From: Pirellula staleyi DSM 6068
GTDB lineage: Bacteria; Planctomycetota; Planctomycetia; Pirellulales; Pirellulaceae
Assembly: GCA_000025185.1 (NCBI GenBank)
Contig: CP001848.1
Span: 180,001 to 212,000, forward strand
Length of the DNA: 32,000 bases
Direction of reading: 5' to 3'
Below are positions 3,006 through 14,753 of the stretch, in pieces (position 1 is the stretch's first letter; every line of letters starts with the position of its first letter). Position numbers and translations under genes: made by a program. The notes beneath the pieces were generated by a model. The model was not told the DNA's origin and ran no database searches. It was given only the letters and a program-made list of their open reading frames with translations.

Positions 3006-4106
3006 ATGGGTCCGCAACCGAGTGTCGACGAAGATTTAGCCGAGGGTCTGCGCGGAGCGAAAAAATCGCCACGCAACTTTGCGCTCATTTGCAAAGGCCC
3101 GAAGCCGGTCAAGTTGATCGTGCAGAAAAAACCGGTCCGCGCGGGGGAACTCACCAAGGCCAAAACCGAGTCGAAAGGGACCGAGGTGATCGTCGGCACT
3201 GTCGAAGGAGATGGTGCCGATCATGTTTTCTCGGTTGTGGGAGAGGTGCCGAATGTGAAAACGTCGGCGCTCAAAGAATTCATCTCCGAGCAAGCGGGGC
3301 TCACCTGCAAACCACGCTTTCAGTCGGTGAAGCAGCTGGTTTCCGTCGGCGACGACGAACCGGAAACGGGCGCATCGCAAAGCAATGAAACGAGCTCAAG
3401 CACTGCTACGACTACCAAAAATAATTCGGCGAGCGAGCAGGAAACAAACGAGTCAGAAGCCGAAGAGTCCAATGATCTCGCGGAAGCGCGGCAAAAGCTG
3501 CTCGACGCCCTGAAGGGATTGATGCCGACCCTGCAAAAAGTGATTGGCGAGCAGCCAGGCCGACGCATCGCGCTATTGACCGATGTCGATCAGATCAAAA
3601 AGCAGGTCGCCACCGATCTGGCCGCAGCCCAGCAAGCCTTCGACACGCTGGTCGCTTCGCTCGGCGAAAATAATTCGGGCAACAATGAAAGCGCCGAGGG
3701 GAGCAAGGTCTCGCTTGTGAAACTCGGAATCGCGCGGGTCGAGTGGCGCACCACGCGCGACACCGCTGGGGCCGATCTTCGCAAACTCAAAGCGGCGATT
3801 GCAGAAGAATTTGGAGACGACAGCGAGCAAGCAGGCGCGCTCACCGCCGCGATGAAAACACTCGACAACCTGACCGTCGAAGTCGAGAACAACCTGCACG
3901 AACAGCTCGATGCGATCCTTAACGCCGAGGCCCAAGCACGTGGTCCGCTCGTGAAAGCGGCCAAGGCGACGATCAGCAAACTGACGACGCTGCTCGATAA
4001 CGACGAAGTGATGGTGGAGATCGACGACAACGAGTTCCTTCCTGGCATGCTCGTCGTCGCTCCGCTGAAGAAGAAGCTGCAAGACATTTCGGCAGCGATC
4101 GGCTAG
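3006..4106 (+). CDS. Hypothetical protein: small N-terminal beta-rich region, acidic S/T/N-rich linker, helical C-terminal half
   Basis: First ATG in the ORF is at 3006 (MGPQPSVDEDL...); upstream of it the ORF reads as Arg/Cys-rich noise. Coding-like GC3 bias. I recognise no family. Confidence 0.6.
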   Translation: MGPQPSVDEDLAEGLRGAKKSPRNFALICKGPKPVKLIVQKKPVRAGELTKAKTESKGTEVIVGTVEGDGADHVFSVVGEVPNVKTSALKEFISEQAGLTCKPRFQSVKQLVSVGDDEPETGASQSNETSSSTATTTKNNSASEQETNESEAEESNDLAEARQKLLDALKGLMPTLQKVIGEQPGRRIALLTDVDQIKKQVATDLAAAQQAFDTLVASLGENNSGNNESAEGSKVSLVKLGIARVEWRTTRDTAGADLRKLKAAIAEEFGDDSEQAGALTAAMKTLDNLTVEVENNLHEQLDAILNAEAQARGPLVKAAKATISKLTTLLDNDEVMVEIDDNEFLPGMLVVAPLKKKLQDISAAIG

Positions 4107-4204
4107 CGCGAGCCACACCCGCGCGACGTTTTCATCCACCTCACTATCACGCCCACGCGAGCCCTCTGCTTCGCCGGCGCTCTTTCGCATAAAGCAAACC
4201 GATC

Positions 4205-7200
4205 ATGGACAATCCTAAGCAAAAACGTGGCCTCGCCTCCGCACTTCGCTTGCGTCGACGCGCTCGAGGAAGCAGTGCTCTGCCGCCACCTCCAGTGATC
4301 CCCCTGCCACCTGTGCCACAGCCACCCCAGCAGCCGCCGGTACAGCCAGTGGTGCAGCAGCCAGGCTGGGCCCCCGCGCAAAAAAATATCCCAGCCAATG
4401 CTAAAGATTTGGTGGGGGGCGCGCGGCAAATGGCGCTCGCCAAACAGCATTTCGAAAAGGGGCTGAAAGAGGAGATGCCGACGATCCACAAGGCTAAGCA
4501 ATTTGTGCTGACCGTCGATGCTGAACGTATTTCGCAAACCAAGATCAAAGACGATGCGCCGATCGTCGCAGAACTCACCAACCTCTCGACGCTGCTGCAG
4601 CAGCAGGCCAAGACCCTCGAAACGCACACCACCGCCGTCCGCGCCGCCGTGGCTAACAAGGACTTCATCGCCGCTGATACTGAGTTCACGGCCGCCCTCA
4701 CACTCTCCACCACCATGCTGGCGGAAGATGCCAATTTTCAGGCGATCCTGCAGCGACATGGAAAATCGCCGGTGCTCGACCTGGCCGGGGATCGCAAGAC
4801 GATTTCCTCCGCAGGCAAAGAGTTCCGCCGCCGACTCGCCCTTTCGCAAGGGGTGGTCGAAGAGTTGCTCCAAACCGAGTCCGATAACACCGCTGTGAAG
4901 AAGAATATCGCGGAGTTGCAAAAGTCGTACGACGCGATGCAGCAGGCCGATGGGGAGGAGAAGTTCGACGTCGCCGATGGTCTGCTCAACGAAGTTGTCG
5001 AGGACGCCGAGGTGGTGCGGATGCTGGTGAAAGCAGCGCAGCAGTTCGAGGAGTCGGTGGCCCAGCTCAAGCCCGAAATGACCATGGTGAAGAAGTTTCG
5101 CGTGGCCAATCCCACCGACGCTCAGATGGCTAGTCAAGCCTTGGCCATTGCCGCTCATCAGCGCGCGCTCTCGGCAGCCGATCGGGGGAACTTCGTGAAG
5201 GCGAGCGAGGAACTCGGGACCGCACGCGCGGCAGCCTTCGAGCTATTTCCCGACGGTGCCACCGAAGCCCGCGCGTTTGAGTTCGGCTGGCAACAATCGC
5301 TCCCTCGAATCGAGGAGGCGCTGCGGGTGACTAGCGATAGCCCGTATGCCCAAAAGCTGCAGCAGGGAATTCGGGATGTCAAAGCACAGATTGAGAAAGA
5401 TGCCGAGAAACTGAAGTTCGAACGCGCGAGCCTGACGATCGACGATGCCCTGCTGCTGGTGCAAGGTTTGCGCTATGCTGTCGCCGACTGGGAGGTCTAT
5501 GTCGGCTCGAAGGAGCGTGTCGAGAGCGTGATCGCAAGCGCCGACAAAGTGAGCGCTAATTCCGATGCGCAAAAAGCATTTCGCACCACCTATGTCGCAG
5601 CGATGCAGCAGGCGGAAGTGGCCATTCATGCTGGCGATTTCCCACTGTCGAAGCAAAAACTGGGAGAAGCGCAAGAGGCTGCCCTGGGACTCCTCGCCAC
5701 TGGTCCGGGGGCCGATGCCCTGCAGTACTTCACCGAGGTCGATGCCGAGCAGAGTCGCTTGAAAGCGGCCGATAAAATCGTCCCCAAGTGTGGCGTCGTC
5801 ACTGAGGCGAAAGAGGCCTACGACGAAGCGCGTGAGTTCCTCCGCGGCTCGGTCGATCGCGCAGAATTCGATAGCGCGCTGGCCGAACTCGATCTCTGCC
5901 GCACCCGCGCCTATCAGCTCGAAACCGAGCACAAAAAGTACGAAGCAATCGAGCGTCTGCAAAACAGTTATCAAAGCGTGCTCGATGCCGCAGCCACTGC
6001 CGATGTCACCTTGCCCGGTGTCGCGGCAGCCAAGAACGAGTTCGACGACAAGCTCGAGTTTGTCGCGCCGTTGCTCGATACCAATCTCGATCAAGCGCTC
6101 GTCAAACTCAAAGAAGCAGTGACTCTCGCCCACAAGGTGAATGGCCTCATCGAACAAGCAGCCAAGCAAAAGAGTCGCAAACAAGAGCTCGACCAAACGA
6201 TCGGTCTGGCAGGCAAAACGTACCTGCCACCCGGCTCTACCGACGAGCTCTCGAAGGGAACGGTCGCCGGGACCGATACGCTGTGGGATTTCTTCTTGAT
6301 TGCGTCGAGCGTAGCGGAAACGACGCGCGATGCCGCCAGCTTCACGAACCTCGAGCTGGCTGCGAAGTCCTGGCTCGCCGACTTAAAGGCCCGCGATCCC
6401 AACGACCCGCAAGATCCCCAAGTGGCCAAGCGCAAGCAGGCGTGCGAAACCGCTATCAAGCAAGCCAAGCACTTGAAACTCGCCGCCCGATTCAGCGAGC
6501 TCGGAGATCTTCCGTGGGATGCCGCCACCGAAGACAAAGCGGCCGACCTGCAGATGCAAGCGTTGTTTGAAACAGGCGACCGTCCGATGGAGCAAGCGGG
6601 CGATAGCGCGTTTGGTGCCAAGTGGATCGTGAGCCAGGACTTTGCCAATGGCGAAGGGAAACGCGAGTTCGTTTACAAAGCGGCCTTTGAAACCGATGCG
6701 TCCGAGATTCAAGGCTTCCCACGAGGGAGCGAACCGGTGCGCGAAGTGCTCGGTGACGAGCTCGCCAAACAACTCAAGGCGATGACCGGCCTGGAAATGA
6801 ACGTTCCCGAAACGCGTATCGTTTCAGTCGATAGCGAGAAACTCAATCCGGCCGATCCAGGGCGGAGTGTGATCGGCTCGGCGCAGGCAGCAGCGCCGAC
6901 CATCGGCAGCGTGGTGAAGCTGAAGGATTCGAATCCCGAGGCGATGAAAAAAGTGACTCCCAAATCGGCGCAGAAAGCCGCGCTGTTCGATGCCCTCGCG
7001 CTGAACGTCGATCGTCACGGCAACAATTTCCTCGTCACCCCTCCGGGCGAGTCGGGGGAGAGCGAACTGGTGCCGATCGACAACGGACTCGCCTTCCCAT
7101 CGCGGGAAGGGATGGAAGCGCGGCGCGGCCGCAATGCCTCGATGAGTGCCTTTTCCGATATCCGTTCGGCCTACGAACCGTTCGATCCCGAGATCCTCGC

Positions 7201-8338
7201 CGGAATCGAGATGATCGACGAAACCACGCTGATCGCCGGGATGAAAGCCCGCACCAATACGCTGCAAGCCGAGCAGCCCGCACTGAATGTGAAGACGGTC
7301 ACTCCCGACGCGCAGATGGATCTCCTGGCGCGGAACATCAAGTTCCTCAAGAAAGCGGCTCCGCGCGTTTCTCCAGCGGTGATGATGGACCTGCTGATGG
7401 AAAACGCCGTGGCGATTTTCGATTCCCCCGACGCTGATTTCGAGACTGCCATCGAAGCGGTGATCCAAAAGGGAGAAACTCGCGACAAGCACCTCGCTCC
7501 GCTGCTCGACATGACCGACGAGGAAAAACTGACGCTCTACACCGATCTGTGGAAGCTCGGATGGTGCCACGGCTACGGCAACCCACGCAAGAATCCCGGT
7601 GGCGCGGCCGCCACGCTGCTCTTCAAAGTCTGGTGCCTTCGGAACCCGCGCGAAGCGCTCACCCTCACGCGGCGCAAGAAGCCCAATCCAGCGATCCTGG
7701 CCGAAACGGCCCGCTATGTCCAAGAGATCAAAAACGTCGATCCGGCGAGCGACATCGACGCCAAACTCGCTGGCCTCTCTCCTTCCGAAGCACGCGACAA
7801 AGCCCATCTGGTCCTTCGCGGCGACATGATGAAGAAGGGGGTAAAGGAAGTGAAGCAGATCCAAAAACTCGAAGCCGACTTCCTGGTCGAATTCCCCGGC
7901 GAACCGTGGGATCCGCGCGACAGCGACGCCTATCGCCTCTATCAGAAGTACAACGCCAAAAGCTTTGCCGAGGTGAATGGCCAAAAACTCGACAACCTGC
8001 CCTTTGCTGATCGCTGGAATTTGCTCGAAGAATACCTGAAAAATCTCGAGAAAGAAGCACTCAAGGGAGAACTTGATGTCATTCGCCAATCCCCTCCGTT
8101 CCTCGAAATGAACGCCGCGTTTGGCAAGTATGGAGAGCGGGTCACTATTCCGAGCTACTACAAAACGGAAGCAGCCCTCGGCATGCTCACCGCTTGGGAA
8201 GAGCTGAAAGCGCTCGGTGGTATCACCGCCTTCATCGATTGCGGCGGCGACTGCGAAGCGATTGGTGGTGGACCGGAGTACATGCTCGCCGTCGTCCGGG
8301 GCGCTCGATCGGCCCAAGGCATCGACGTCGATGCATAA
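4205..8338 (+). CDS. Giant (1377 aa) protein: basic/Pro-rich N-terminus, about 7 degenerate ~75-80-aa helical repeats, then a PI3/PI4-kinase-family (type II PI4K-like) catalytic core and a ~400-aa unknown C-terminal region
   Basis: ATG at 4205 and a single uninterrupted ORF. Kinase-like motifs: 'EFVYKAAFE' (Lys codon 6677-6679), 'SEPVREVLGDELAKQL..EMNVPETRIV', 'LALNVDRHGNNFLV' (Asp codon 7010-7012), 'VPIDNGLAFP' (Asp codon 7079-7081). Confidence 0.85.
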   Translation: MDNPKQKRGLASALRLRRRARGSSALPPPPVIPLPPVPQPPQQPPVQPVVQQPGWAPAQKNIPANAKDLVGGARQMALAKQHFEKGLKEEMPTIHKAKQFVLTVDAERISQTKIKDDAPIVAELTNLSTLLQQQAKTLETHTTAVRAAVANKDFIAADTEFTAALTLSTTMLAEDANFQAILQRHGKSPVLDLAGDRKTISSAGKEFRRRLALSQGVVEELLQTESDNTAVKKNIAELQKSYDAMQQADGEEKFDVADGLLNEVVEDAEVVRMLVKAAQQFEESVAQLKPEMTMVKKFRVANPTDAQMASQALAIAAHQRALSAADRGNFVKASEELGTARAAAFELFPDGATEARAFEFGWQQSLPRIEEALRVTSDSPYAQKLQQGIRDVKAQIEKDAEKLKFERASLTIDDALLLVQGLRYAVADWEVYVGSKERVESVIASADKVSANSDAQKAFRTTYVAAMQQAEVAIHAGDFPLSKQKLGEAQEAALGLLATGPGADALQYFTEVDAEQSRLKAADKIVPKCGVVTEAKEAYDEAREFLRGSVDRAEFDSALAELDLCRTRAYQLETEHKKYEAIERLQNSYQSVLDAAATADVTLPGVAAAKNEFDDKLEFVAPLLDTNLDQALVKLKEAVTLAHKVNGLIEQAAKQKSRKQELDQTIGLAGKTYLPPGSTDELSKGTVAGTDTLWDFFLIASSVAETTRDAASFTNLELAAKSWLADLKARDPNDPQDPQVAKRKQACETAIKQAKHLKLAARFSELGDLPWDAATEDKAADLQMQALFETGDRPMEQAGDSAFGAKWIVSQDFANGEGKREFVYKAAFETDASEIQGFPRGSEPVREVLGDELAKQLKAMTGLEMNVPETRIVSVDSEKLNPADPGRSVIGSAQAAAPTIGSVVKLKDSNPEAMKKVTPKSAQKAALFDALALNVDRHGNNFLVTPPGESGESELVPIDNGLAFPSREGMEARRGRNASMSAFSDIRSAYEPFDPEILAGIEMIDETTLIAGMKARTNTLQAEQPALNVKTVTPDAQMDLLARNIKFLKKAAPRVSPAVMMDLLMENAVAIFDSPDADFETAIEAVIQKGETRDKHLAPLLDMTDEEKLTLYTDLWKLGWCHGYGNPRKNPGGAAATLLFKVWCLRNPREALTLTRRKKPNPAILAETARYVQEIKNVDPASDIDAKLAGLSPSEARDKAHLVLRGDMMKKGVKEVKQIQKLEADFLVEFPGEPWDPRDSDAYRLYQKYNAKSFAEVNGQKLDNLPFADRWNLLEEYLKNLEKEALKGELDVIRQSPPFLEMNAAFGKYGERVTIPSYYKTEAALGMLTAWEELKALGGITAFIDCGGDCEAIGGGPEYMLAVVRGARSAQGIDVDA

Positions 8339-8370
8339 CCCCCGTGCCCGTGACAAAAAATAACCTGCGT

Positions 8371-8392
8371 AGCAGCAGCCTGCTGCTTTTTA
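8371..8392 (+). terminator. Putative rho-independent terminator after the giant gene
   Basis: agcagca-gcc-tgctgct stem-loop (8371-8387) running into a T5 tract, 33 nt after the stop at 8338. Confidence 0.5.
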
Positions 8393-8396
8393 ACTT

Positions 8397-8426
8397 GGAG
8401 GCCGCTGCTACAACGTAGCGGCCTCC
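8397..8426 (+). terminator. Second GC-rich hairpin, possibly a tandem or bidirectional terminator element
   Basis: ggaggccgct (8397-8406) pairs with agcggcctcc (8417-8426), leaving a 10-nt loop. No U-tract follows. Confidence 0.3.
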
Positions 8427-8450
8427 ACAGCCACACTCCGCCACGCTTGT

Positions 8451-8918
8451 ATGGCCATCGCGATTGAACGACTCATCGAGCGTCCCGAGTGCCTTCCGCT
8501 CTTGGCCGACTGGCTGCTGGCCGAGTGGCCCGAGTCGGTCGGTCATGCGCGCTCCGAAGCGCTCATCAACATGGCGGGGCGCACCAACCTTCACCGCTTG
8601 CCCCTCGGGCTCGTGGCGTTCGACGATGGTTGGCCGGTCGGCATGGCGACCTTAGCCCTCGACCGAGCACCGCCGGAACTCGAGTTCAAAACGGCTTATC
8701 TCCCCTGCCTCACCACGCTGTATGTCGATCCACCGGCGCGCAGGCGCGGCATCGGCACGCTGCTGTGCGACGCCATCGCCGGCGAAGCAGCCCGACTCGG
8801 CCGGAGCGAAATTTTTCTCTACACCCTCGACGCCGCCGAGTTCTACCGCGCCCGAAACTGGCAGCAGCTGACCGATGCCACCCCCGTCTTCATGCGCCGC
8901 TCCCTTGCCACCTCGTAA
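8451..8918 (+). CDS. GNAT-family N-acetyltransferase
   Basis: ATG at 8451, 155 aa. 'LYVDPPARRRGIGTLLCDAIAGEAARLG' matches GNAT motif A (R/Q-x-x-G-x-G/A) in the acetyl-CoA binding region. Confidence 0.85.
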   Translation: MAIAIERLIERPECLPLLADWLLAEWPESVGHARSEALINMAGRTNLHRLPLGLVAFDDGWPVGMATLALDRAPPELEFKTAYLPCLTTLYVDPPARRRGIGTLLCDAIAGEAARLGRSEIFLYTLDAAEFYRARNWQQLTDATPVFMRRSLATS

Positions 8919-9146
8919 TAGACATCGATCGAGTGGAACAACTGGCATTTGCGCGCCACCAACTGCAAGCAGCTTGATCCCCCACGAAATCGGTAAAAAA
9001 GCCTTGTGTCGCGGTCGCCGCCCCCTAGAATCCAGCGATGTTGGTTCGAGCAGCGCTGGAGCGCCGAGTTGAAGCTCCAGCGAAAAAAATCGAGCGCTAT
9101 GAATCCGCGATTCGTCTTCGTGCGTCAGCGTCAGGAACATGTCTCT

Positions 9147-11768
9147 ATGTCCAACGACCTTGCAAGCAACTCCAACGCCGAAGCCGAGGCCTGGGTCAAG
9201 GAGGTGCGTCGCATCCTGAAGCGGATGGCGCTGCGGCTCGCCACGGAGGCCTCGCTCGAAGAGGCCGACCGCGCTGATGAAGCGAATCTGGCCGAAGGGA
9301 TTCGGCAATCAGAAACGCTGAAACAAGAACAAGACCAAGTTCGGTTTGCGACGAACCAAATCGCCATCCAAGAGCTGACAGCGGTCGCCAGTTTGCTCAC
9401 CCCCGTCACCCCGAAGTTTGCGCAGCTGATCGAAACCTATAGCGCCGCGAAGCTCGTGTTCGATAGCGCCGCTGCTGAAGCGGAAGCCAATGAAACCTAC
9501 GAGCCATTTTTTTCCGACCAAATCGCGTTTCAGAAAGAGGTTGAGACCCTCGTCGGACTGCAGCCCGAGCACGATCAGCTTGTTGCTGCCAAAACGGAGA
9601 TCGAGCAGTGGCAAACGACCGAGTCGTCGAAGGTCGACGATGTGGTGAAGCTGACCTCGCTTCCTTCCCTGCTGCTTGCAGCGCAAAGCAAACTCGCCAC
9701 GCTCTACGACACGCTGAAGCTCCAAATCGAGCAGAGCGAGTATCTCACCGCGAAAGGTTTGCTGGCCGATGTCGACGCGCACCTCAGCTTGTACGGCGAT
9801 GCCCAAGTAGCGCATGCGCAGGCCAAGGAATCGTGCGATACCGCCTGGTATCAAAACGTGGAGACGATACTCCAGCAAGCGCGCCAGGTGCCCACCGCAA
9901 CCGGACTCGCCACTGAATTCAGCGAACTCGAGAAAGCAGCGCAGGCCAGCTACGACGAGTACAACAAGCAGGAATATGCCGAAGCTCAAAAATTGCAGCA
10001 GGCGATCATTGATAAAGCGCAGCTCCTGATCGAGAAGAACAAACTGAAGGTCGCTTGCGATTTCGCCTGGATTCAAAACGTTCAGCCGACCTTCTCGGAA
10101 GCGCAGCAAGTTCCCAATGTCCCCGGGTTGAACAAAGAGATTGGCGAGTTCAACAGCGCGTGCACGGAGAGCAACAACAAGTATTATGCGGGCGAGTATG
10201 TCGAAGCGCAAAAATTGCATCAGACGATCGTCGATAAAGCGCAGCTCCTGATCGAGAAGAACAAGCTGAAGATCGCCTGCGATAACGCCTGGAATCAAAA
10301 TGTCCAGGCAATTTACTCGGAAGCGCAGCAAGTCCCGAACGTCTCCGGGATGCAAAAGGAGGGTGGCGAGTTTGTAAACGCATTTACCGCAAGCAACAAC
10401 AAGTATTTTGCGGGCGACTATGCCGAAGCACAAAAGCTGCAGCAGGCGATCATCGATAAAGCACAGCTCCTGATCGAGAAGAACAAGCTGAAGATCGCCT
10501 GCGATAACGCCTGGAACCAGAACGTCAGCGCTTCCTACCTGCAAGCGCGAAAAGTGGGTGTCGTCCCTGAACTGAAGACTGCGATCGAAGCCCTCGACCT
10601 CGCCATGAAAGCGAGCAACGACGAGTACAACAAGGGAGCGTATGCCGAGGCGCAAAAGTTCCACCCGGCGATCGTCGAAAAAGCCAAAGAGCTCATTCAA
10701 GCTGGCGCAACCACGATGCTTGTGGCGCGTCCCGAAATTGGCTCGACCCAAGAGTTACTGGCAACTTCGAAGCTCAACTTGATGTCGACCGACGATCAAC
10801 AACTCGTCACCGAATTGATCGACAAAGCGCCGACCGAAAAGCATAAGCAGAACCTTCGCAAAGCGGTTGCGAGCGGCCACTCGGCGAAAGAAATCTCCGA
10901 TTTCGCCGCGAAAATTCGCTTCAAAGATGAAAAGTGGATTCAGGAAAACTTGCACGTCACCGTCACCAGTTCAGGGAAAGGCATTCAGCAGCAATTCAAA
11001 ATGTCGTGCCAGGCAACCATGGTGCAGGCGGTTCGTGCGGAGCTCGATCCGATCTATGCCCTGCAGTTGCACGAAGAAAATTTCGATATCACCCAAGTGG
11101 GCAAAAGCGAGCAGACCGAGCTTGCACGTGAGCAAAAGAAGATGCTCGAAACCGACTGGGCCGAACTCAACACCACCTACGAGAGTCAAGCCAAACAGCG
11201 GATGGACAACGAAGACCCGACAACGAAACTAGCGCTCGAGCAACTTTTGGCCACCGCTACGACGAACAACGAGAAGAATCAGCTGAACTACGAAATCGGT
11301 CGCGCCGAGAAATTTTCTCCCGATGTCCTCAAGGCGTGGTTCGATAAAGATGTCAAGGGAAAGCGTTCCTCGGCGGGTGTCGCCGTGCATATAGGGAACC
11401 CAAGCCCCGAACATGGTCGCGGCCGAACAGGAGTCGATCTCCTCAACAAGAACCAAGCCAGCACCGGGCTGAAGTACGAGCAAGTCCTGGTCAATGACAG
11501 CACGCGCGAAGCAGCAGTCAACGACATCACCGCCGAGCTCATGCTCGGACGTCCGGTCCCACTCACGGTCGGTAGCTTCGAAGGACAGACGGCCCACTAT
11601 GTCCTGGCCCTCGGCATTGTGCCGGGCAATCCCAAGTCGATCATCATTCACGATCCCGGTACTGGCACCACCGTGATGCGGACCGAAGATCAGCTGAAGA
11701 ACAATCAAATGGATCTCCCCTCGACCTGGGGCCGCCTCACCGACTACGTCAAACCGACGCCGATTTAA
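9147..11768 (+). CDS. Large helical-repeat protein with four 74-aa tandem repeats and a C-terminal papain/C39-like cysteine peptidase domain
   Basis: ORF is open from GTG 9006. Candidate starts are ATG 9099 (MNPRF...) and ATG 9147 (MSNDLASN...), so the start is uncertain. C-terminal 'QQQFKMSCQATMV' (Cys codon 11007-11009), 'TAHYVLALG' (His codon 11595-11597) and 'IIIHDPGTG' (Asp codon 11652-11654) resemble the Q..C / HYV / I.DP pattern of C39-type peptidases. Confidence 0.8.
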   Translation: MSNDLASNSNAEAEAWVKEVRRILKRMALRLATEASLEEADRADEANLAEGIRQSETLKQEQDQVRFATNQIAIQELTAVASLLTPVTPKFAQLIETYSAAKLVFDSAAAEAEANETYEPFFSDQIAFQKEVETLVGLQPEHDQLVAAKTEIEQWQTTESSKVDDVVKLTSLPSLLLAAQSKLATLYDTLKLQIEQSEYLTAKGLLADVDAHLSLYGDAQVAHAQAKESCDTAWYQNVETILQQARQVPTATGLATEFSELEKAAQASYDEYNKQEYAEAQKLQQAIIDKAQLLIEKNKLKVACDFAWIQNVQPTFSEAQQVPNVPGLNKEIGEFNSACTESNNKYYAGEYVEAQKLHQTIVDKAQLLIEKNKLKIACDNAWNQNVQAIYSEAQQVPNVSGMQKEGGEFVNAFTASNNKYFAGDYAEAQKLQQAIIDKAQLLIEKNKLKIACDNAWNQNVSASYLQARKVGVVPELKTAIEALDLAMKASNDEYNKGAYAEAQKFHPAIVEKAKELIQAGATTMLVARPEIGSTQELLATSKLNLMSTDDQQLVTELIDKAPTEKHKQNLRKAVASGHSAKEISDFAAKIRFKDEKWIQENLHVTVTSSGKGIQQQFKMSCQATMVQAVRAELDPIYALQLHEENFDITQVGKSEQTELAREQKKMLETDWAELNTTYESQAKQRMDNEDPTTKLALEQLLATATTNNEKNQLNYEIGRAEKFSPDVLKAWFDKDVKGKRSSAGVAVHIGNPSPEHGRGRTGVDLLNKNQASTGLKYEQVLVNDSTREAAVNDITAELMLGRPVPLTVGSFEGQTAHYVLALGIVPGNPKSIIIHDPGTGTTVMRTEDQLKNNQMDLPSTWGRLTDYVKPTPI
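9834..10721 (+). repeat. Four in-frame tandem repeats of 222 bp (74 aa) inside the 9147-11768 CDS
   Basis: Cys codons of the 'ACD.AW.QNV' block recur at 9834, 10056, 10278 and 10500, exactly 222 bp apart. The block 'gataaagc(g/a)cagctcctgatcgagaagaacaa(a/g)ctgaag' recurs at 10011, 10233 and 10455. The two middle copies are nearly identical at DNA level. Confidence 0.9.
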
Positions 11769-11867
11769 GTACTCTCTCGGATGCACCACGCGAGTGGCAG
11801 CACCACTCCTTGGCGCGACACGACATCACCACAGCCCATCAGGGCGAAAGCATAGTTGGGTAAACGC

Positions 11868-12362
11868 ATGGCGAACGATCTCAATCCCCATCAGCTCCTC
11901 GCGCGGCGACCGACGGAGTACCTCCGAGCAGGTTTCTTTGACCCGCCAGGAAGTCTGCGCGCGAGCTTGCTCGGGATCGATGCCTTTGCTGTCGCCACGC
12001 AGCTGATGCAGGGAGCCGCCTCGCCCGACGAAGTGACGATCACCTACGAGGCACTCCGCCAGCTGGTCGAGCAGCAGCCCGCCGGCGCAACTCCCCAGCG
12101 GCTCGGCGTTGCCCTCCCCGAAGCGCTGCAGCTGGTGCGGCGCATGCTCGGGATCGAGAACAACGATACCCTCGCCGCTTGGCTTTTCGATTGCCAGCCG
12201 TTTGTGCGAACCGACGACGATCTGCGCGCCTTTTTCGACCATTTTCAGGCTGTTTTACGGCAATACACGTCGCTCCTCGGCGTCAGCACTCCCCCCGCTG
12301 CTGACGCTGCTAACCCAAGCCCCGACGCACCAAGCCCCGACGCGCCGGGCGCCGAAGGCTAA
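11868..12362 (+). CDS. Hypothetical 164-aa protein with a Pro/Ala/Ser/Asp-rich tail (PSPDAPSPDAP)
   Basis: ATG at 11868 (the track ORF starts at TTG 11856), 99 nt after the protease-domain gene on the same strand. Coding-like composition. No recognisable family. Confidence 0.55.
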   Translation: MANDLNPHQLLARRPTEYLRAGFFDPPGSLRASLLGIDAFAVATQLMQGAASPDEVTITYEALRQLVEQQPAGATPQRLGVALPEALQLVRRMLGIENNDTLAAWLFDCQPFVRTDDDLRAFFDHFQAVLRQYTSLLGVSTPPAADAANPSPDAPSPDAPGAEG

Positions 12363-12529
12363 CAACCTCCCATCGCGCGCATGCTTCCCAGCTTCTCTTT
12401 ACGAGGCTGGCCCGTTTTGCTACCAGTCGCACCGGCGAGGTCCCGCTGCGCGCAAACACCGCGCGCTGCTGTCACTCGGTGCTCTGCGCGACGAACTGAG
12501 TTCAACGCTGAACATCAGTCAAATTTCAC

Positions 12530-12551
12530 CCCAGGTTGCTTGCAACCTGGG
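12530..12551 (+). terminator. GC hairpin, a possible terminator for the upstream island
   Basis: cccaggttgc-tt-gcaacctggg is a near-perfect palindrome in the 284-bp gap before glf. No U-tract follows. Confidence 0.3.
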
Positions 12552-12646
12552 CCGCGAAGCGGCAAGAGGGACTGTAGCGACTGACCGACCACGTTGGCTC
12601 CAGCACGAACTTACCACTGCATTTAGTTTCACCCTAGAAAAACGCC

Positions 12647-13792
12647 ATGAAGCCGTCACCGAAACAGCGACCCGACTACTTAGTCGTCGGCAGCGGCTTC
12701 TTCGGAGGAGTCTTCGCGCGCGTGATGGCCGAGCATGGTTTGCGCTCACTCGTAATCGATCGCCGCCCCCACTTGGCGGGCAATTGCTACACCCAATCGC
12801 AACATGGAATCGAGGTCCATCAGTACGGGCCTCACATTTTTCATACCAGCGACGAGCGCGTGTGGAAGTTCGTCAATCGCTTCGCCAAGTTTCATCACTA
12901 CATCCATCGCGTCGTCGCCCGCTATGGCGAAACGACCTATTCATTTCCCATCAACCTGAAAACACTCGAGCAGCTGTGGGGAGTCCGCACTCCTGAGGAA
13001 GCCGCCGCGCGACTCCAAGCCGAATGCATCCCTCACGCGCAGCCTCAGAACTGCGAAGAGTGGCTGCTGGCCAACGTCGGTCGGCAAATCTACGAGACCT
13101 TTTTCGAGGGCTATACCACCAAACAGTGGAACCGCTCTCCCGCCGAACTCCCCGCGTCGATTGTCCGCCGAATTCCGATCCGTCTGGCCGACAACGATCG
13201 CTATTTTGACGACCGCTTCGAAGGGATTCCGATTGGCGGCTACACGCGGCTGTTTGAAAACCTGCTCGATCACCCGCTGATCGAAATCGAGACCGGTGTC
13301 GATTATCTGGCGAGTCGCAAGGAGCTATCGAGCATTGCCCCGAGCCTGGTTTATAGCGGCGCGATCGATGAGTTTTTTGACTATCGCTTCGGAGCCCTCG
13401 ACTATCGTTCGCTCCGTTTTGTTTCGGAAGTTATTGACGGCGACTATCAAACGACGGCGATTGTGAACTACACCAGCGCCGCTGTCCCGTTCACACGAAT
13501 CACCGAGCATAAACACTTTGCCGGAACACAGTCGAGCAAGAGCGTCATCACGCGCGAATATCCCGACGACTATGCTCCTGGTAGGACCCCCTACTATCCG
13601 GTGCGCGATCCGCAGAATGTCGCGCGCTACGAGCAATATCGTCGGCTGTCGCTGCAGCTGCCGGTGATTTTTGGGGGGCGACTCGGGAGCTATCAGTATT
13701 TCGACATGCACCAGGTGATTGCCCAGGCGCTGAGCAAAGCGGAAGCGGAACTCGCGCTGCGCGGTCAGGTGCAACAGCGACGAGCCGCCTAA
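12647..13792 (+). CDS. glf: UDP-galactopyranose mutase
   Basis: 'DYLVVGSGFFGGVFA' Rossmann FAD motif, 'HLAGNCYT', 'VHQYGPHIFHT' and 'YPV..P.N' blocks; the 381-aa length is typical of Glf. Confidence 0.9.
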   Translation: MKPSPKQRPDYLVVGSGFFGGVFARVMAEHGLRSLVIDRRPHLAGNCYTQSQHGIEVHQYGPHIFHTSDERVWKFVNRFAKFHHYIHRVVARYGETTYSFPINLKTLEQLWGVRTPEEAAARLQAECIPHAQPQNCEEWLLANVGRQIYETFFEGYTTKQWNRSPAELPASIVRRIPIRLADNDRYFDDRFEGIPIGGYTRLFENLLDHPLIEIETGVDYLASRKELSSIAPSLVYSGAIDEFFDYRFGALDYRSLRFVSEVIDGDYQTTAIVNYTSAAVPFTRITEHKHFAGTQSSKSVITREYPDDYAPGRTPYYPVRDPQNVARYEQYRRLSLQLPVIFGGRLGSYQYFDMHQVIAQALSKAEAELALRGQVQQRRAA

Positions 13793-13856
13793 CCGTGCGC
13801 GCCTTCGGGGCAATAAACCAGCACCATCACCACGACGATAGAATCTCACCGACTCC

Positions 13857-14726
13857 ATGCCTCATCACTTGACAAACTCGAGCAGCGCGAGCCCCGCATC
13901 GACCGGTCGACGCTGGCTCGTGATTTCACCGGTCGGTGACCGCTCGTGTCACTCGAGCTGGATAACCGGTCGCCCCCAGCGGCAGTTCGACTTGATGCTG
14001 ATCTACTTTGGGGATCAGCCGCACTACGATTTTGGCGGGGCCGAACATCAGCTGCGGCGCAAGGGATTTAAATACCATTTGCTCGCCAGTGTGGTGGAAG
14101 AATATCGCGAACTTCTCGCGCAGTACGACACCATCTGGCTCCCCGACGACGACATCCGCACGACCCCGCGCGAGATCCACCAGCTCTTTGAAATCTTCGA
14201 GCGGCAGCTGCTGCTGGTGGCTCAGCCGGCAATTGCGTCGGGGGTGATTTCGTACCAAAGTTTGCGGCAACAGCGGCGCACGCTGCTGCGCTACTCGCCG
14301 CTGGTCGAAGTGATGTGCCCGATTTTTGCGCGCGACTATTTTTTGCAATCGAGCGCGCTCTTTCGCGAGAATCAATCGGCGTGGGGGATCGACTGGATCT
14401 GGTCGAATCGCTGTGCGGCCTCTCAGCGCGCGGTGATCGATGCGGTCGGCGTGCACCACACCGGTGTGCTGATGCAGGGAGACCTCTATCAAAAATTGAA
14501 AGCGCGAGGGATCAATCCGACCGAAGAGTTCCACGCTCTGGTCGAGCGCCATGGTGGCATCGACTGGTCGGTCCATCGTCAGCTGATCGAAGGGACCTTA
14601 CCGATGGAGCGCATCGCAGCGGCTGGTCCGCTACTTGCGCTCTGGCAGCGTCTGACGAATCAGCGCGTGACGAATCAGCGTCTCGCGCTGCCGCGCCCGC
14701 AAGCTACATCGCAAAGCGCAGCTTAA
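13857..14726 (+). CDS. DUF707-like protein (putative glycosyltransferase-like, function unknown)
   Basis: ATG at 13857. 'YDTIWLPDDDI....EIFERQLLLVAQPA' resembles the DUF707 core (xxD[ED]D followed by 'SQPAL'). Adjacent to glf. Confidence 0.55.
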   Translation: MPHHLTNSSSASPASTGRRWLVISPVGDRSCHSSWITGRPQRQFDLMLIYFGDQPHYDFGGAEHQLRRKGFKYHLLASVVEEYRELLAQYDTIWLPDDDIRTTPREIHQLFEIFERQLLLVAQPAIASGVISYQSLRQQRRTLLRYSPLVEVMCPIFARDYFLQSSALFRENQSAWGIDWIWSNRCAASQRAVIDAVGVHHTGVLMQGDLYQKLKARGINPTEEFHALVERHGGIDWSVHRQLIEGTLPMERIAAAGPLLALWQRLTNQRVTNQRLALPRPQATSQSAA

Positions 14727-14753
14727 ACACCCGCATCTCAGCTGCGGCCTGCC

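Follow-up and report, generated by a model that had tools for sequence, protein, structure and literature searches.

We identify, in a 32,000-nucleotide stretch of the Pirellula staleyi DSM 6068 genome (contig CP001848.1, positions 180,001 to 212,000; hereafter the window), a 1377-residue protein, Psta_0145, whose kinase domain has, in minimal form, the eukaryotic type II phosphatidylinositol 4-kinase (PI4KII) fold of the PI3/PI4-kinase superfamily. The protein is very probably an active kinase. It belongs to a family concentrated in free-living bacteria of the Planctomycetes-Verrucomicrobia-Chlamydiae (PVC) group that lacks the insertions of the eukaryotic enzymes, comes with a dedicated partner gene and is linked to type VI secretion system (T6SS) genes in related loci. 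We propose that Psta_0145 is a T6SS effector, a reading to which we assign a probability of roughly 0.45. In the searchable literature we found no mention of Psta_0145 and no description of this kinase family. Known before were secreted bacterial phosphatidylinositol (PI) kinases as a kind and the domain call itself: the product of nucleotides 4205..8338 is 100% identical to 'hypothetical protein Psta_0145 [Pirellula staleyi DSM 6068]', which UniRef names 'PI3K/PI4K catalytic domain-containing protein'.

A type II PI4K-like kinase core

An earlier reading of the window (the original prediction) had placed a type II PI4K-like core inside a long, mostly helical bacterial protein, and sequence profiles, the predicted fold and the catalytic residues uphold this. 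The five motif strings that it quoted are all found, in the order given, between nucleotides 6656 and 7099, and its two candidate catalytic Asp codons are correctly placed (D936 at 7010, D959 at 7079). The human PI4K2A strings that it cited are also right, as 'iDNGLAFP' and 'RNTDRGNDNWL' both appear in HMMER alignments to PDB 4hnd/4pla/4wtv. The protein, its kinase domain and the motifs within it are as follows.

4205..8338, + strand: Psta_0145, 1377-residue open reading frame (ORF), without transmembrane segment or signal peptide
6485..7492, + strand: kinase domain, residues 761-1096, type II PI4K-like fold by AlphaFold2 model, Foldseek and hhalign
6599..6628, + strand: glycine-rich loop equivalent GDSAFGAKWI, residues 799-808, paired by hhalign with PI4K2A 'GSSGSYFV'
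6656-6697, + strand: GKREFVYKAAFETD, residues 818-831, quoted in the original prediction
6677..6679, + strand: ATP-binding Lys K825, invariant in 49 relatives, paired by hhalign with PI4K2A K152
6725-6775, + strand: GSEPVREVLGDELAKQL, residues 841-857, quoted in the original prediction
6743..6745, + strand: Glu E847 of the REV motif (alpha-C Glu equivalent), invariant in the family
6794-6823, + strand: EMNVPETRIV, residues 864-873, quoted in the original prediction
6875..6886, + strand: GSxQ hinge, G891-Q894, equivalent to PI4K2A 258-GSFQ-261 and aligned with it by hhalign; G and Q invariant
6983-7036, + strand: LFDALALNVDRHGNNFLV, residues 927-944, quoted in the original prediction
7010..7027, + strand: catalytic loop DRHGNN, D936-N941, equivalent to PI4K2A D308-N313, in the region matched by PF00454; D, R and N invariant
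7070-7099, + strand: VPIDNGLAFP, residues 956-965, quoted in the original prediction
7076..7087, + strand: metal-binding IDNG, I958-G961, equivalent to PI4K2A I345-G348, with the same residues in the PI4K2A/B chains; I, D and G invariant

The resemblance to type II PI4Ks is beyond chance, because a family profile searched against PDB, an hhalign comparison and a Foldseek search all point to PI4K2A and PI4K2B. Searching PDB sequences by phmmer with the whole protein or the domain alone returned nothing relevant, the sole match (SPC24) being spurious. A five-sequence family profile run against 177,635 PDB sequences ranked PI4K2B first (E 0.003) and PI4K2A next (E 0.04). Aligned to the PI4K2A catalytic domain by hhalign, as the original prediction had suggested, an 18-sequence family alignment gave 93% probability and E 2.9e-7 across 244 columns that span the G-loop to the C-lobe helices, and paired D936 with D308 and D959 with D346. 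The PI4K2A sequence used here agrees with 24 residue-number checkpoints (Zhou et al. 2014, PMC3974213) and contains the segments shown in PDB-chain alignments. Sequence identity between the bacterial domain and PI4K2A/B is about 16-24%.

Structure prediction leads to the same enzymes. The AlphaFold2 model of residues 761-1096 has a mean predicted local distance difference test score (pLDDT) of 77.8 and a predicted TM-score (pTM) of 0.81, with most of the C-lobe above 85. Foldseek of this model against PDB, which had been put forward as a check, yields significant matches: the best seven are all PI4K2A/B (E 2e-7 to 1.5e-5, TM-score up to 0.60), and after a steep gap come generic protein kinases and PI3Kgamma (E>2e-3, TM-scores of about 0.2-0.3; PI3Kgamma itself at E 7e-3 and 0.31). 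The lack of any significant profile or structural match to PI3/PI4-kinase folds, which the original prediction had named as its refutation, is thus contradicted. Superposition on PI4K2A covers 321 columns at a TM-score of 0.60 and describes a bilobal kinase fold whose N-lobe is of lower confidence; judging from this superposition, the catalytic-loop (DRH) and IDNG residues would be juxtaposed. The proposed Pfam comparison gave a divided answer. PF00454 scores only 22.0-23.9 bits on Psta_0145, under its gathering cutoff of 27.1 and with the match confined to the catalytic and activation loops; a close relative, P0006, reaches 29.9 bits, and the model is found in 48 of 49 diverse family members, with a best E of 1.2e-17.

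Conserved catalysis in a large bacterial family

The original prediction had held such kinases to be rare and unexpected in bacteria, and this did not survive. Exhaustive HMMER searching of 1.84 billion representatives recovers a large environmental bacterial family, with 1539 members at E<=1e-3, 361 at <=1e-10 and 209 at <=1e-30, most of which cover the whole 334-position profile and are 600-1650 residues long. Word-indexed homolog searches gave just 1-5 relatives and so made the family seem far rarer than it is. A scan of 185,579 species genomes with patterns from alignment A2 located at least six loci, a lower bound given how narrow the patterns were; the matched genomes are Pirellula and Anatilimnocola (Planctomycetota), Limisphaerales, Verrucomicrobiia and Spartobacteria (Verrucomicrobiota) and one Acetobacteraceae metagenome-assembled genome (MAG). 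The family consists of big, soluble, mostly helical proteins, chiefly from Planctomycetota and Verrucomicrobiota and patchily distributed.

Across 49 diverse relatives the sole invariant columns are K825, E847, G862, D929, D936/R937/N941 and I958/D959/G961. This pattern indicates, at the level of sequence, that catalysis is conserved and that the domain is not a relic; in PI4K2A the K152A substitution abolishes activity (PMC3974213). The identity to human PI4K2A over IDNGLAFP that the original prediction had stressed is real, and is peculiar to a subgroup: PIDNGLAF occurs in 5 of 153 relatives and PIDHG, as in the plant and protist PI4Kgamma enzymes, in most, so the identity is a subgroup coincidence.

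The module conserved across the family runs from about residue 640 to about residue 1130: the kinase is preceded by a helical extension that closes with LG.PPWD and is followed by the initial C-terminal helices, which carry LGW. The remaining parts of Psta_0145 are more restricted, and a phmmer search with residues 1-640 finds only 6 of 153 family proteins. Among 49 sampled members there is no recurrent second Pfam domain, and a Pfam scan detects no ubiquitin-like (UBL) domain in Psta_0145 or 49 relatives. Outside the kinase domain, the protein divides as follows.

4205..4390, + strand: N-terminal basic motif KRGLASALRLRRRARG, then a Pro/Gln-rich linker; kept in P0002, P0006 and the 778-residue gene of locus L007 ('LGLRRRRH')
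4391..6124, + strand: long helical region of the Pirellula-type subgroup only, without Pfam match
6125..6484, + strand: helical pre-kinase extension with LG.PPWD at its end, family-wide; conservation with distant members starts at about residues 640-690 (BLAST, alignment; A3 consensus)
7493..8335, + strand: C-terminal helical region with LGW and W..K.LGG motifs; kept in P0002, P0006 and P0012, and weakly in about seven more

An AlphaFold2 model of the C-terminal 288 residues is an all-helical bundle (pLDDT 69) that has no match among PDB folds (best E 2.8). At locus L007 the kinase is divided into two abutting genes, 7662..9998 (778 residues) and 10001..11842 (613 residues), split exactly before LG.PPWD. 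A frameshift or an assembly artefact could account for the split, or it may be natural, in which case the kinase and the C-terminal region can stand alone. At locus L009 the Pirellula-like partner-kinase region (7350..11505) is broken into small genes of 171, 317, 170, 142, 68, 333 and 162 residues, with the downstream acetyltransferase gene still in place; the region looks like a pseudogene in decay or a poorly assembled one.

A dedicated partner gene

The original prediction overlooked a conserved gene directly upstream of the kinase as well as the T6SS linkage of related loci. In every locus with sequence at that position, a same-strand gene directly precedes the kinase gene, and all-against-all BLAST of the loci finds only this partner and the kinase conserved, except for an acetyltransferase gene in the Pirellula lineage. 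The window's partner aligns with that of L007 over its full length at 44% identity (E 2e-88); the start at ATG 3006 is supported by this alignment, which begins at residue 67 of the mechanically called ORF. Neither the partner nor Psta_0145 shows a signal peptide or a transmembrane segment in a sequence check, the peak 19-residue hydropathy in Psta_0145 being 1.17.

3006..4106, + strand: partner gene, 366 residues (ATG 3006; mechanical ORF from TTG 2826), conserved upstream companion of the kinase
3030..3341, + strand: partner N-terminal domain, about 100 residues, 'KKSPRNFALICKG...', by phmmer
3720..4103, + strand: partner C-terminal domain, about 125 residues, helical, with a W...D-x-N-(P/E)-F motif (alignments A5, A7)
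5659..6951 in L001, 6206..7435 in L003 and 3567..4745 in L004: partner genes elsewhere
3107..4141 in L005, 6484..7581 in L007 and 8706..9890 in L008: further partner genes

The two ends of the partner behave differently. By phmmer, its N-terminal domain is also the N-terminus of the kinases P0039 and P0074 (residues 10-108) and is present in P0139, and by BLAST the L005 partner (residues 9-190) matches the L003 kinase (residues 7-200); a module that occurs in both proteins has therefore been shuffled between partner and kinase. The C-terminal domain is the constant part. In alignments A5 and A7 a Leu, the D-x-N pair and a second Leu are invariant and the Trp and Phe nearly so; in a distant kinase subfamily (L010-L013) the upstream partner has only 162-170 residues and is essentially this domain alone. 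A single kinase protein, P0076, carries the domain within its own chain, at residues 316-452 and right before the kinase at 501-811. The partner is thus co-encoded with the kinase across the family and once fused to it. Its C-terminal domain has no match in Pfam, NCBIfam, PADLOC or PDB; the hits of the partner profile to Tlg1, AHSP, HrpJ and EAD1 in PDB and Pfam all had E>0.05 and were dismissed as noise.

A short N-terminal motif, approximately 'MPxxL(T/S)xEQxxFLxxxLGVxxPxxY' ('W(V)xRVLGV' in the minimal partners), was seen by eye on kinases, on partners and on an unannotated 956-residue gene of L005. Its sites are P0003, P0008, P0010, P0014 and P0034, L005 (3107.. and 64..), L011 (2765..) and L013 (1818..). 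Conceivably it is a T6SS marker or loading motif that has so far gone unrecognised.

Linkage to type VI secretion genes

Two related loci place the pair next to T6SS genes. The orthologous locus L007, whose kinase is 40% identical to Psta_0145 in its C-terminal half, has the order VgrG, DUF6931, partner, kinase. The Spartobacteria locus L005 has the order 956-residue gene, partner, kinase, TssH (an AAA+ ATPase), VgrG. Both spike proteins are T6SS TssI/VgrG by NCBIfam (551 and 633 bits against a cutoff of 186), and the L005 ATPase is TssH/ClpV by an NCBIfam equivalog (1220 bits against 885), with the ClpB model under its own cutoff. VgrG thus adjoins the pair in 2 of about 13 loci with usable flanks, in two different phyla. 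This is far above the expectation for a random gene (p ~0.003 by a rough estimate, not a computed statistic). A candidate third link, a gene with an IcmF-related_N domain (Pfam) 1.2 kb downstream in the Anatilimnocola locus L002, is not recognised as TssM by NCBIfam and was kept as a hint only.

The fold also occurs in phages. A search of predicted structures in BFVD found tailed-phage proteins with a PI3K/PI4K-like domain (A0A6J5N2Y3, A0A6J5MJB0, A0A6J5L1V5 and L7TJZ0, from phages of bacteria and haloarchaea). One of them, a 1140-residue protein, is annotated with a phage head-morphogenesis (MuF-type) domain fused to the kinase-like one (E 4e-6). This suggests that the PI3K/PI4K-like fold is used in phages as injected virion cargo. 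By analogy, these phage proteins and the effector precedents OpiA, LepB, LegA5 and Risk1 lend support to an injected-cargo logic for the bacterial family.

Missing insertions and affinity to PI4Kgamma

Three insertions distinguish PI4KII enzymes: I1 (residues 157-190 of PI4K2A), an amphipathic helix with the CCPCC palmitoylation motif that forms part of the PI pocket; I2 (217-255), which is rich in Arg and Lys and binds membrane; and I3 (318-340) (PMC3974213). The hhalign comparison of the family with PI4K2A has gaps exactly at I1, I2 and I3, and the spacings between catalytic motifs agree. From the Lys to the Glu there are 22 residues in Psta_0145 (family median 21) and 41 in PI4K2A; from PxT to GSxQ, 21 (median 26) and 47; and from Asp to Asp, 23 (median 22) and 38. 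No CCPCC motif is present in the Psta_0145 kinase domain.

The PI pocket of PI4K2A is formed by E157, Y159, R181, L184, T307, D308 and L349 (PMC3974213), and it is retained in part. D308 corresponds to D936 of Psta_0145, L349 to L962 and T307 to V935; at the E157 position Psta_0145 has E829, shifted by one. A Glu lies five residues after the Lys in 63 of 103 family members, and a Leu equivalent to L349 follows IDxG in 48 of 103. R181 and L184 are without counterpart in the bacterial family because I1 is absent.

The sequence comparison makes the plant and protist PI4Kgamma branch of type II PI4Ks, rather than human PI4K2A, the nearest relatives of the bacterial family. The comparator was a kinase with DRNACN and PIDHGLTI motifs on a eukaryotic metagenome contig, L020, taken from a group of weaker metagenome matches. 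Bacterial alignment A4 matches it by hhalign at 99.2% probability and E 6.5e-20 over 239 columns, as against about 3e-7 for PI4K2A, and it is this difference that puts PI4Kgamma nearer. Its Lys-to-Glu spacing is 37, an insert of I1 length, whereas PxT-to-GSxQ (21) and Asp-to-Asp (18) show I2 and I3 to be absent. We take the L020 protein for a eukaryotic PI4Kgamma-type kinase because of its anoctamin/TMEM16 neighbour and an apparent ubiquitin-like segment at its N-terminus, the latter judged by eye. The contig is intron-poor, with a GC content of 0.41 and one tRNA-Cys. Arabidopsis PI4Kgamma enzymes are reported to be Ser/Thr protein kinases, not lipid kinases.

9283..10911 in L020, + strand: UBL-like segment and PI4Kgamma-type kinase; eukaryotic comparator
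1384..3609 in L020, + strand: anoctamin/TMEM16 homolog neighbouring the kinase, E 2e-52

Proposed role and alternatives

We propose that the partner and the kinase would together form a cargo effector module of a T6SS. In it the partner would serve as an adaptor or co-effector, loading would fall to the variable N-terminal modules, and the kinase, once delivered, would phosphorylate a substrate in the target cell. The adjacency at L007 and L005, the lack of a signal peptide or transmembrane segment and a patchy taxonomy that includes an Acetobacteraceae MAG speak for this reading. We prefer an adaptor or co-effector to an immunity protein because the partner lies upstream, shares delivery-type N-terminal modules with the kinases and is fused to one once. 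The substrate may be phosphatidylinositol or another membrane lipid, as for OpiA and LepB, or it may be a protein. A lipid is suggested by the nearest solved structures and the OpiA/LepB precedent, and we regard it as possible and on the whole doubtful; the affinity to PI4Kgamma and the absence of I1 and I2 bring a protein substrate into play.

Several observations weigh against this proposal. The window carries no T6SS, PAAR or known adaptor gene and the neighbours are housekeeping genes; the flanks of L001, L003, L004, L006, L008, L046 and L047 likewise hold no VgrG and only housekeeping neighbours, so that the T6SS link is seen in just two of the approximately 13 loci. Pfam and NCBIfam give no match to MIX, FIX, RIX, PAAR, DUF4123, DUF1795 or DUF2169 in kinase, partner or neighbours, and the PADLOC and NCBIfam models have no meaningful match to kinase or partner. 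The literature is ambiguous on whether P. staleyi has a T6SS, and the DNA examined is the 32-kb window. On the side of the enzyme, the N-lobe of the AlphaFold2 model is of low confidence (pLDDT 38-64 at domain residues 31-80), and the case for a lipid substrate is weakened by the lack of the PI4KII insertions, which in the eukaryotic enzymes bind membrane and supply half of the PI pocket.

We consider an endogenous alternative unlikely though deserving of serious weight: Psta_0145 could be a cytoplasmic signalling or regulatory protein kinase, with the partner as regulatory subunit or substrate and the helical regions as scaffolds. T6SS genes beside the pair in two loci would then be there by coincidence, or because the kinase regulates the T6SS rather than being its cargo. 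Most loci, the window included, indeed lie amid housekeeping genes and lack secretion genes; PI4Kgamma-type kinases are nearest by profile, a partner-kinase fusion fits a regulatory subunit, and Planctomycetes are described as rich in signalling kinases (PMC11032199). Against this, chance adjacency to VgrG in two phylogenetically distant loci is unlikely (p ~0.003, the rough estimate given above), and variable, shuffled N-terminal modules with a patchy distribution suggestive of horizontal transfer are typical of effectors, not of core signalling.

It is distinctly less probable that the kinase is an antibacterial toxin, delivered by a T6SS or another contact-dependent system, with the upstream partner as its immunity protein. 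A small cognate gene in tight, universal linkage would suit that role, L003 and L047 have a convergent SMI1_KNR4 (SUKH-type) gene downstream of the kinase, and phage MuF-type proteins with the same fold imply bacterial targets; since phage proteins carry the kinase fold, a bacterial target is possible. An immunity protein would, however, be odd upstream rather than downstream, sharing N-terminal modules with the kinases and fused to one in P0076, and neither kinase nor partner has a periplasmic targeting signal.

Two evolutionary or membrane-based readings receive less credence still. The bacterial family may be a prokaryotic sister group or source of the eukaryotic type II PI4Ks or, in a related form, part of a phosphoinositide-like identity system on PVC membranes, which we rate as an outside chance. 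Under the first of these, an insertion-free core from PVC bacteria would have entered eukaryotes and later gained I1-I3 and UBL domains. Both would fit because the family is large and diverse, lacks the eukaryote-specific insertions and is strongly homologous to PI4Kgamma-type kinases. More improbable again is an endogenous lipid kinase acting on the cell's own membranes, for example on a phosphoinositide-like lipid of the PVC endomembrane system. In its favour, the closest proteins of solved structure are lipid kinases, family members occur mainly in PVC bacteria, and the Glu five residues after the Lys (63 of 103) and the Leu after IDxG (48 of 103) are frequent. Yet no membrane-binding element is present, with I1 and I2 missing and neither a transmembrane nor an amphipathic insertion in their stead, nothing corresponds to the pocket residues R181 and L184, this analysis gives no sign of PI production by P. 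staleyi, and the distribution within PVC genomes is patchy (at least six pattern-matched loci in 185,579 species genomes). An inactive pseudokinase or scaffold that keeps only the fold, to which the sub-threshold PF00454 score and the poorly modelled N-lobe of Psta_0145 might point, is very improbable indeed, as K, E, D, R, N, D and G are invariant in 49 divergent members, a mark of purifying selection on catalysis.

If the effector reading is right, a large number of type-II-PI4K-like effectors, each with its own partner protein, await exploration in free-living Planctomycetota and Verrucomicrobiota. To our knowledge, secreted bacterial kinases that rewrite phosphoinositides have so far come from a few intracellular pathogens (LepB, OpiA, LegA5, Risk1). 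The targets here would presumably be protist grazers or competitors, which would widen the ecology of T6SS-mediated lipid or protein phosphorylation. The family also offers a minimal, soluble, insertion-free PI4KII fold for structural and mechanistic work.

Neighbouring genes and other features

Downstream of the kinase, only the acetyltransferase gene recurs. A GNAT homolog follows the kinase in L008, L001 and L009 and in none of the Verrucomicrobiota loci; it is a possible member of the kinase module. The next gene encodes a 920-residue repeat protein with 2.5 tandem copies of a 222-nt (74-residue) unit at 9975..10529 (83% identity) and with helical 'G(D/E)YxEAQKL' motifs that resemble those of the kinase N-terminal region and the partner. 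It has no match in Pfam, NCBIfam, PADLOC or PDB; its C-terminal portion of about 330 residues has Cys/His stretches (FKMSCQ..., GQTAHYVLALG...IIIHDPG) that look peptidase-like by eye. Its helical GxYxEA repeats made it a candidate member of the module, which was rejected because it is absent from the syntenic L008 and so represents an insertion.

8451..8918, + strand: GNAT acetyltransferase, Pfam Acetyltransf_1 9e-11, syntenic downstream neighbour in the Pirellula lineage only
9006..11768, + strand: 920-residue repeat-protein ORF (likely start near 9141), downstream of GNAT

Relative to the sister Pirellula contig L008 (14645..15199), the window (8919..14750) has about 5.8 kb extra between the GNAT and ornithine decarboxylase genes. 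The extra DNA holds the 920-residue repeat protein, a 168-residue ORF, a UDP-galactopyranose mutase gene and a DUF707-like gene. It fits a strain-specific insertion, with a GC dip to 0.55 at 10-12 kb.

An SMI1_KNR4 (SUKH superfamily) gene is convergent with the kinase in L003 (11656..12420, - strand) and L047 (4464..5228, - strand), loci of Limisphaerales type. This family is often annotated as polymorphic-toxin immunity, and the neighbour may be a hint of a conflict system or a coincidence. Three long antisense ORFs overlie Psta_0145 on the - strand (6824..8356, 5243..6196 and 4103..5158; 510, 317 and 351 residues). They were rejected as genes, because their BLAST matches across loci follow sense-strand conservation, and are shadow ORFs typical of high-GC DNA.

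Comparison with known systems

The HipA toxin kinases are distant members of the fold superfamily, and Pfam HipA_2 gives a weak signal of 17-20 bits. That signal is under the cutoff of 27, size and architecture are very different, and no HipA structure is among the top 50 Foldseek matches. There is also no neighbouring HipB-like antitoxin with a helix-turn-helix (HTH), the partner having neither an HTH nor any Pfam match.

Precedents exist among secreted effectors: Francisella OpiA, a T6SS-delivered phosphatidylinositol 3-kinase (PI3K); Legionella LepB, a PI4K delivered by a type IV secretion system (T4SS); and LegA5 and Rickettsia Risk1, T4SS PI kinases (PMC7298712). They share PF00454-type catalytic and activation loops with the bacterial family, and the L007 and L005 neighbourhoods suggest the same delivery logic. 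By their descriptions, they are set apart as proteins of intracellular pathogens, PI3Ks or an atypical PI4K, with no described obligate partner, and none is among the top Foldseek PDB matches. The family reported here, by contrast, is type-II-like in particular, and its hosts are environmental bacteria, free-living PVC members among them.

Human PI4K2A and PI4K2B (4HNE, 4PLA, 4WTV) are the best matches in PDB by both structure and sequence. The G-loop, FKP-Lys, Glu, GSxQ hinge, DRxxxN and IDNGLAFP follow in the same order, and the alignment continues through the C-lobe helices beyond the activation loop. PI4K2A/B carry I1, I2 and I3, whereas the bacterial core is without all three and sits in a 1377-residue helical protein with a dedicated partner gene. 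The plant and protist PI4Kgamma kinases, represented by L020, give the strongest profile match; they have the REV..Y.LD and PIDHG motifs in common with the bacterial family, and both lack I2 and I3. The eukaryotic proteins keep an I1-length insert and N-terminal ubiquitin-like domains, whereas the bacterial ones have neither. Given this strong bacterial homology to the PI4Kgamma branch, the family also touches on the origin of the eukaryotic type II PI4Ks.

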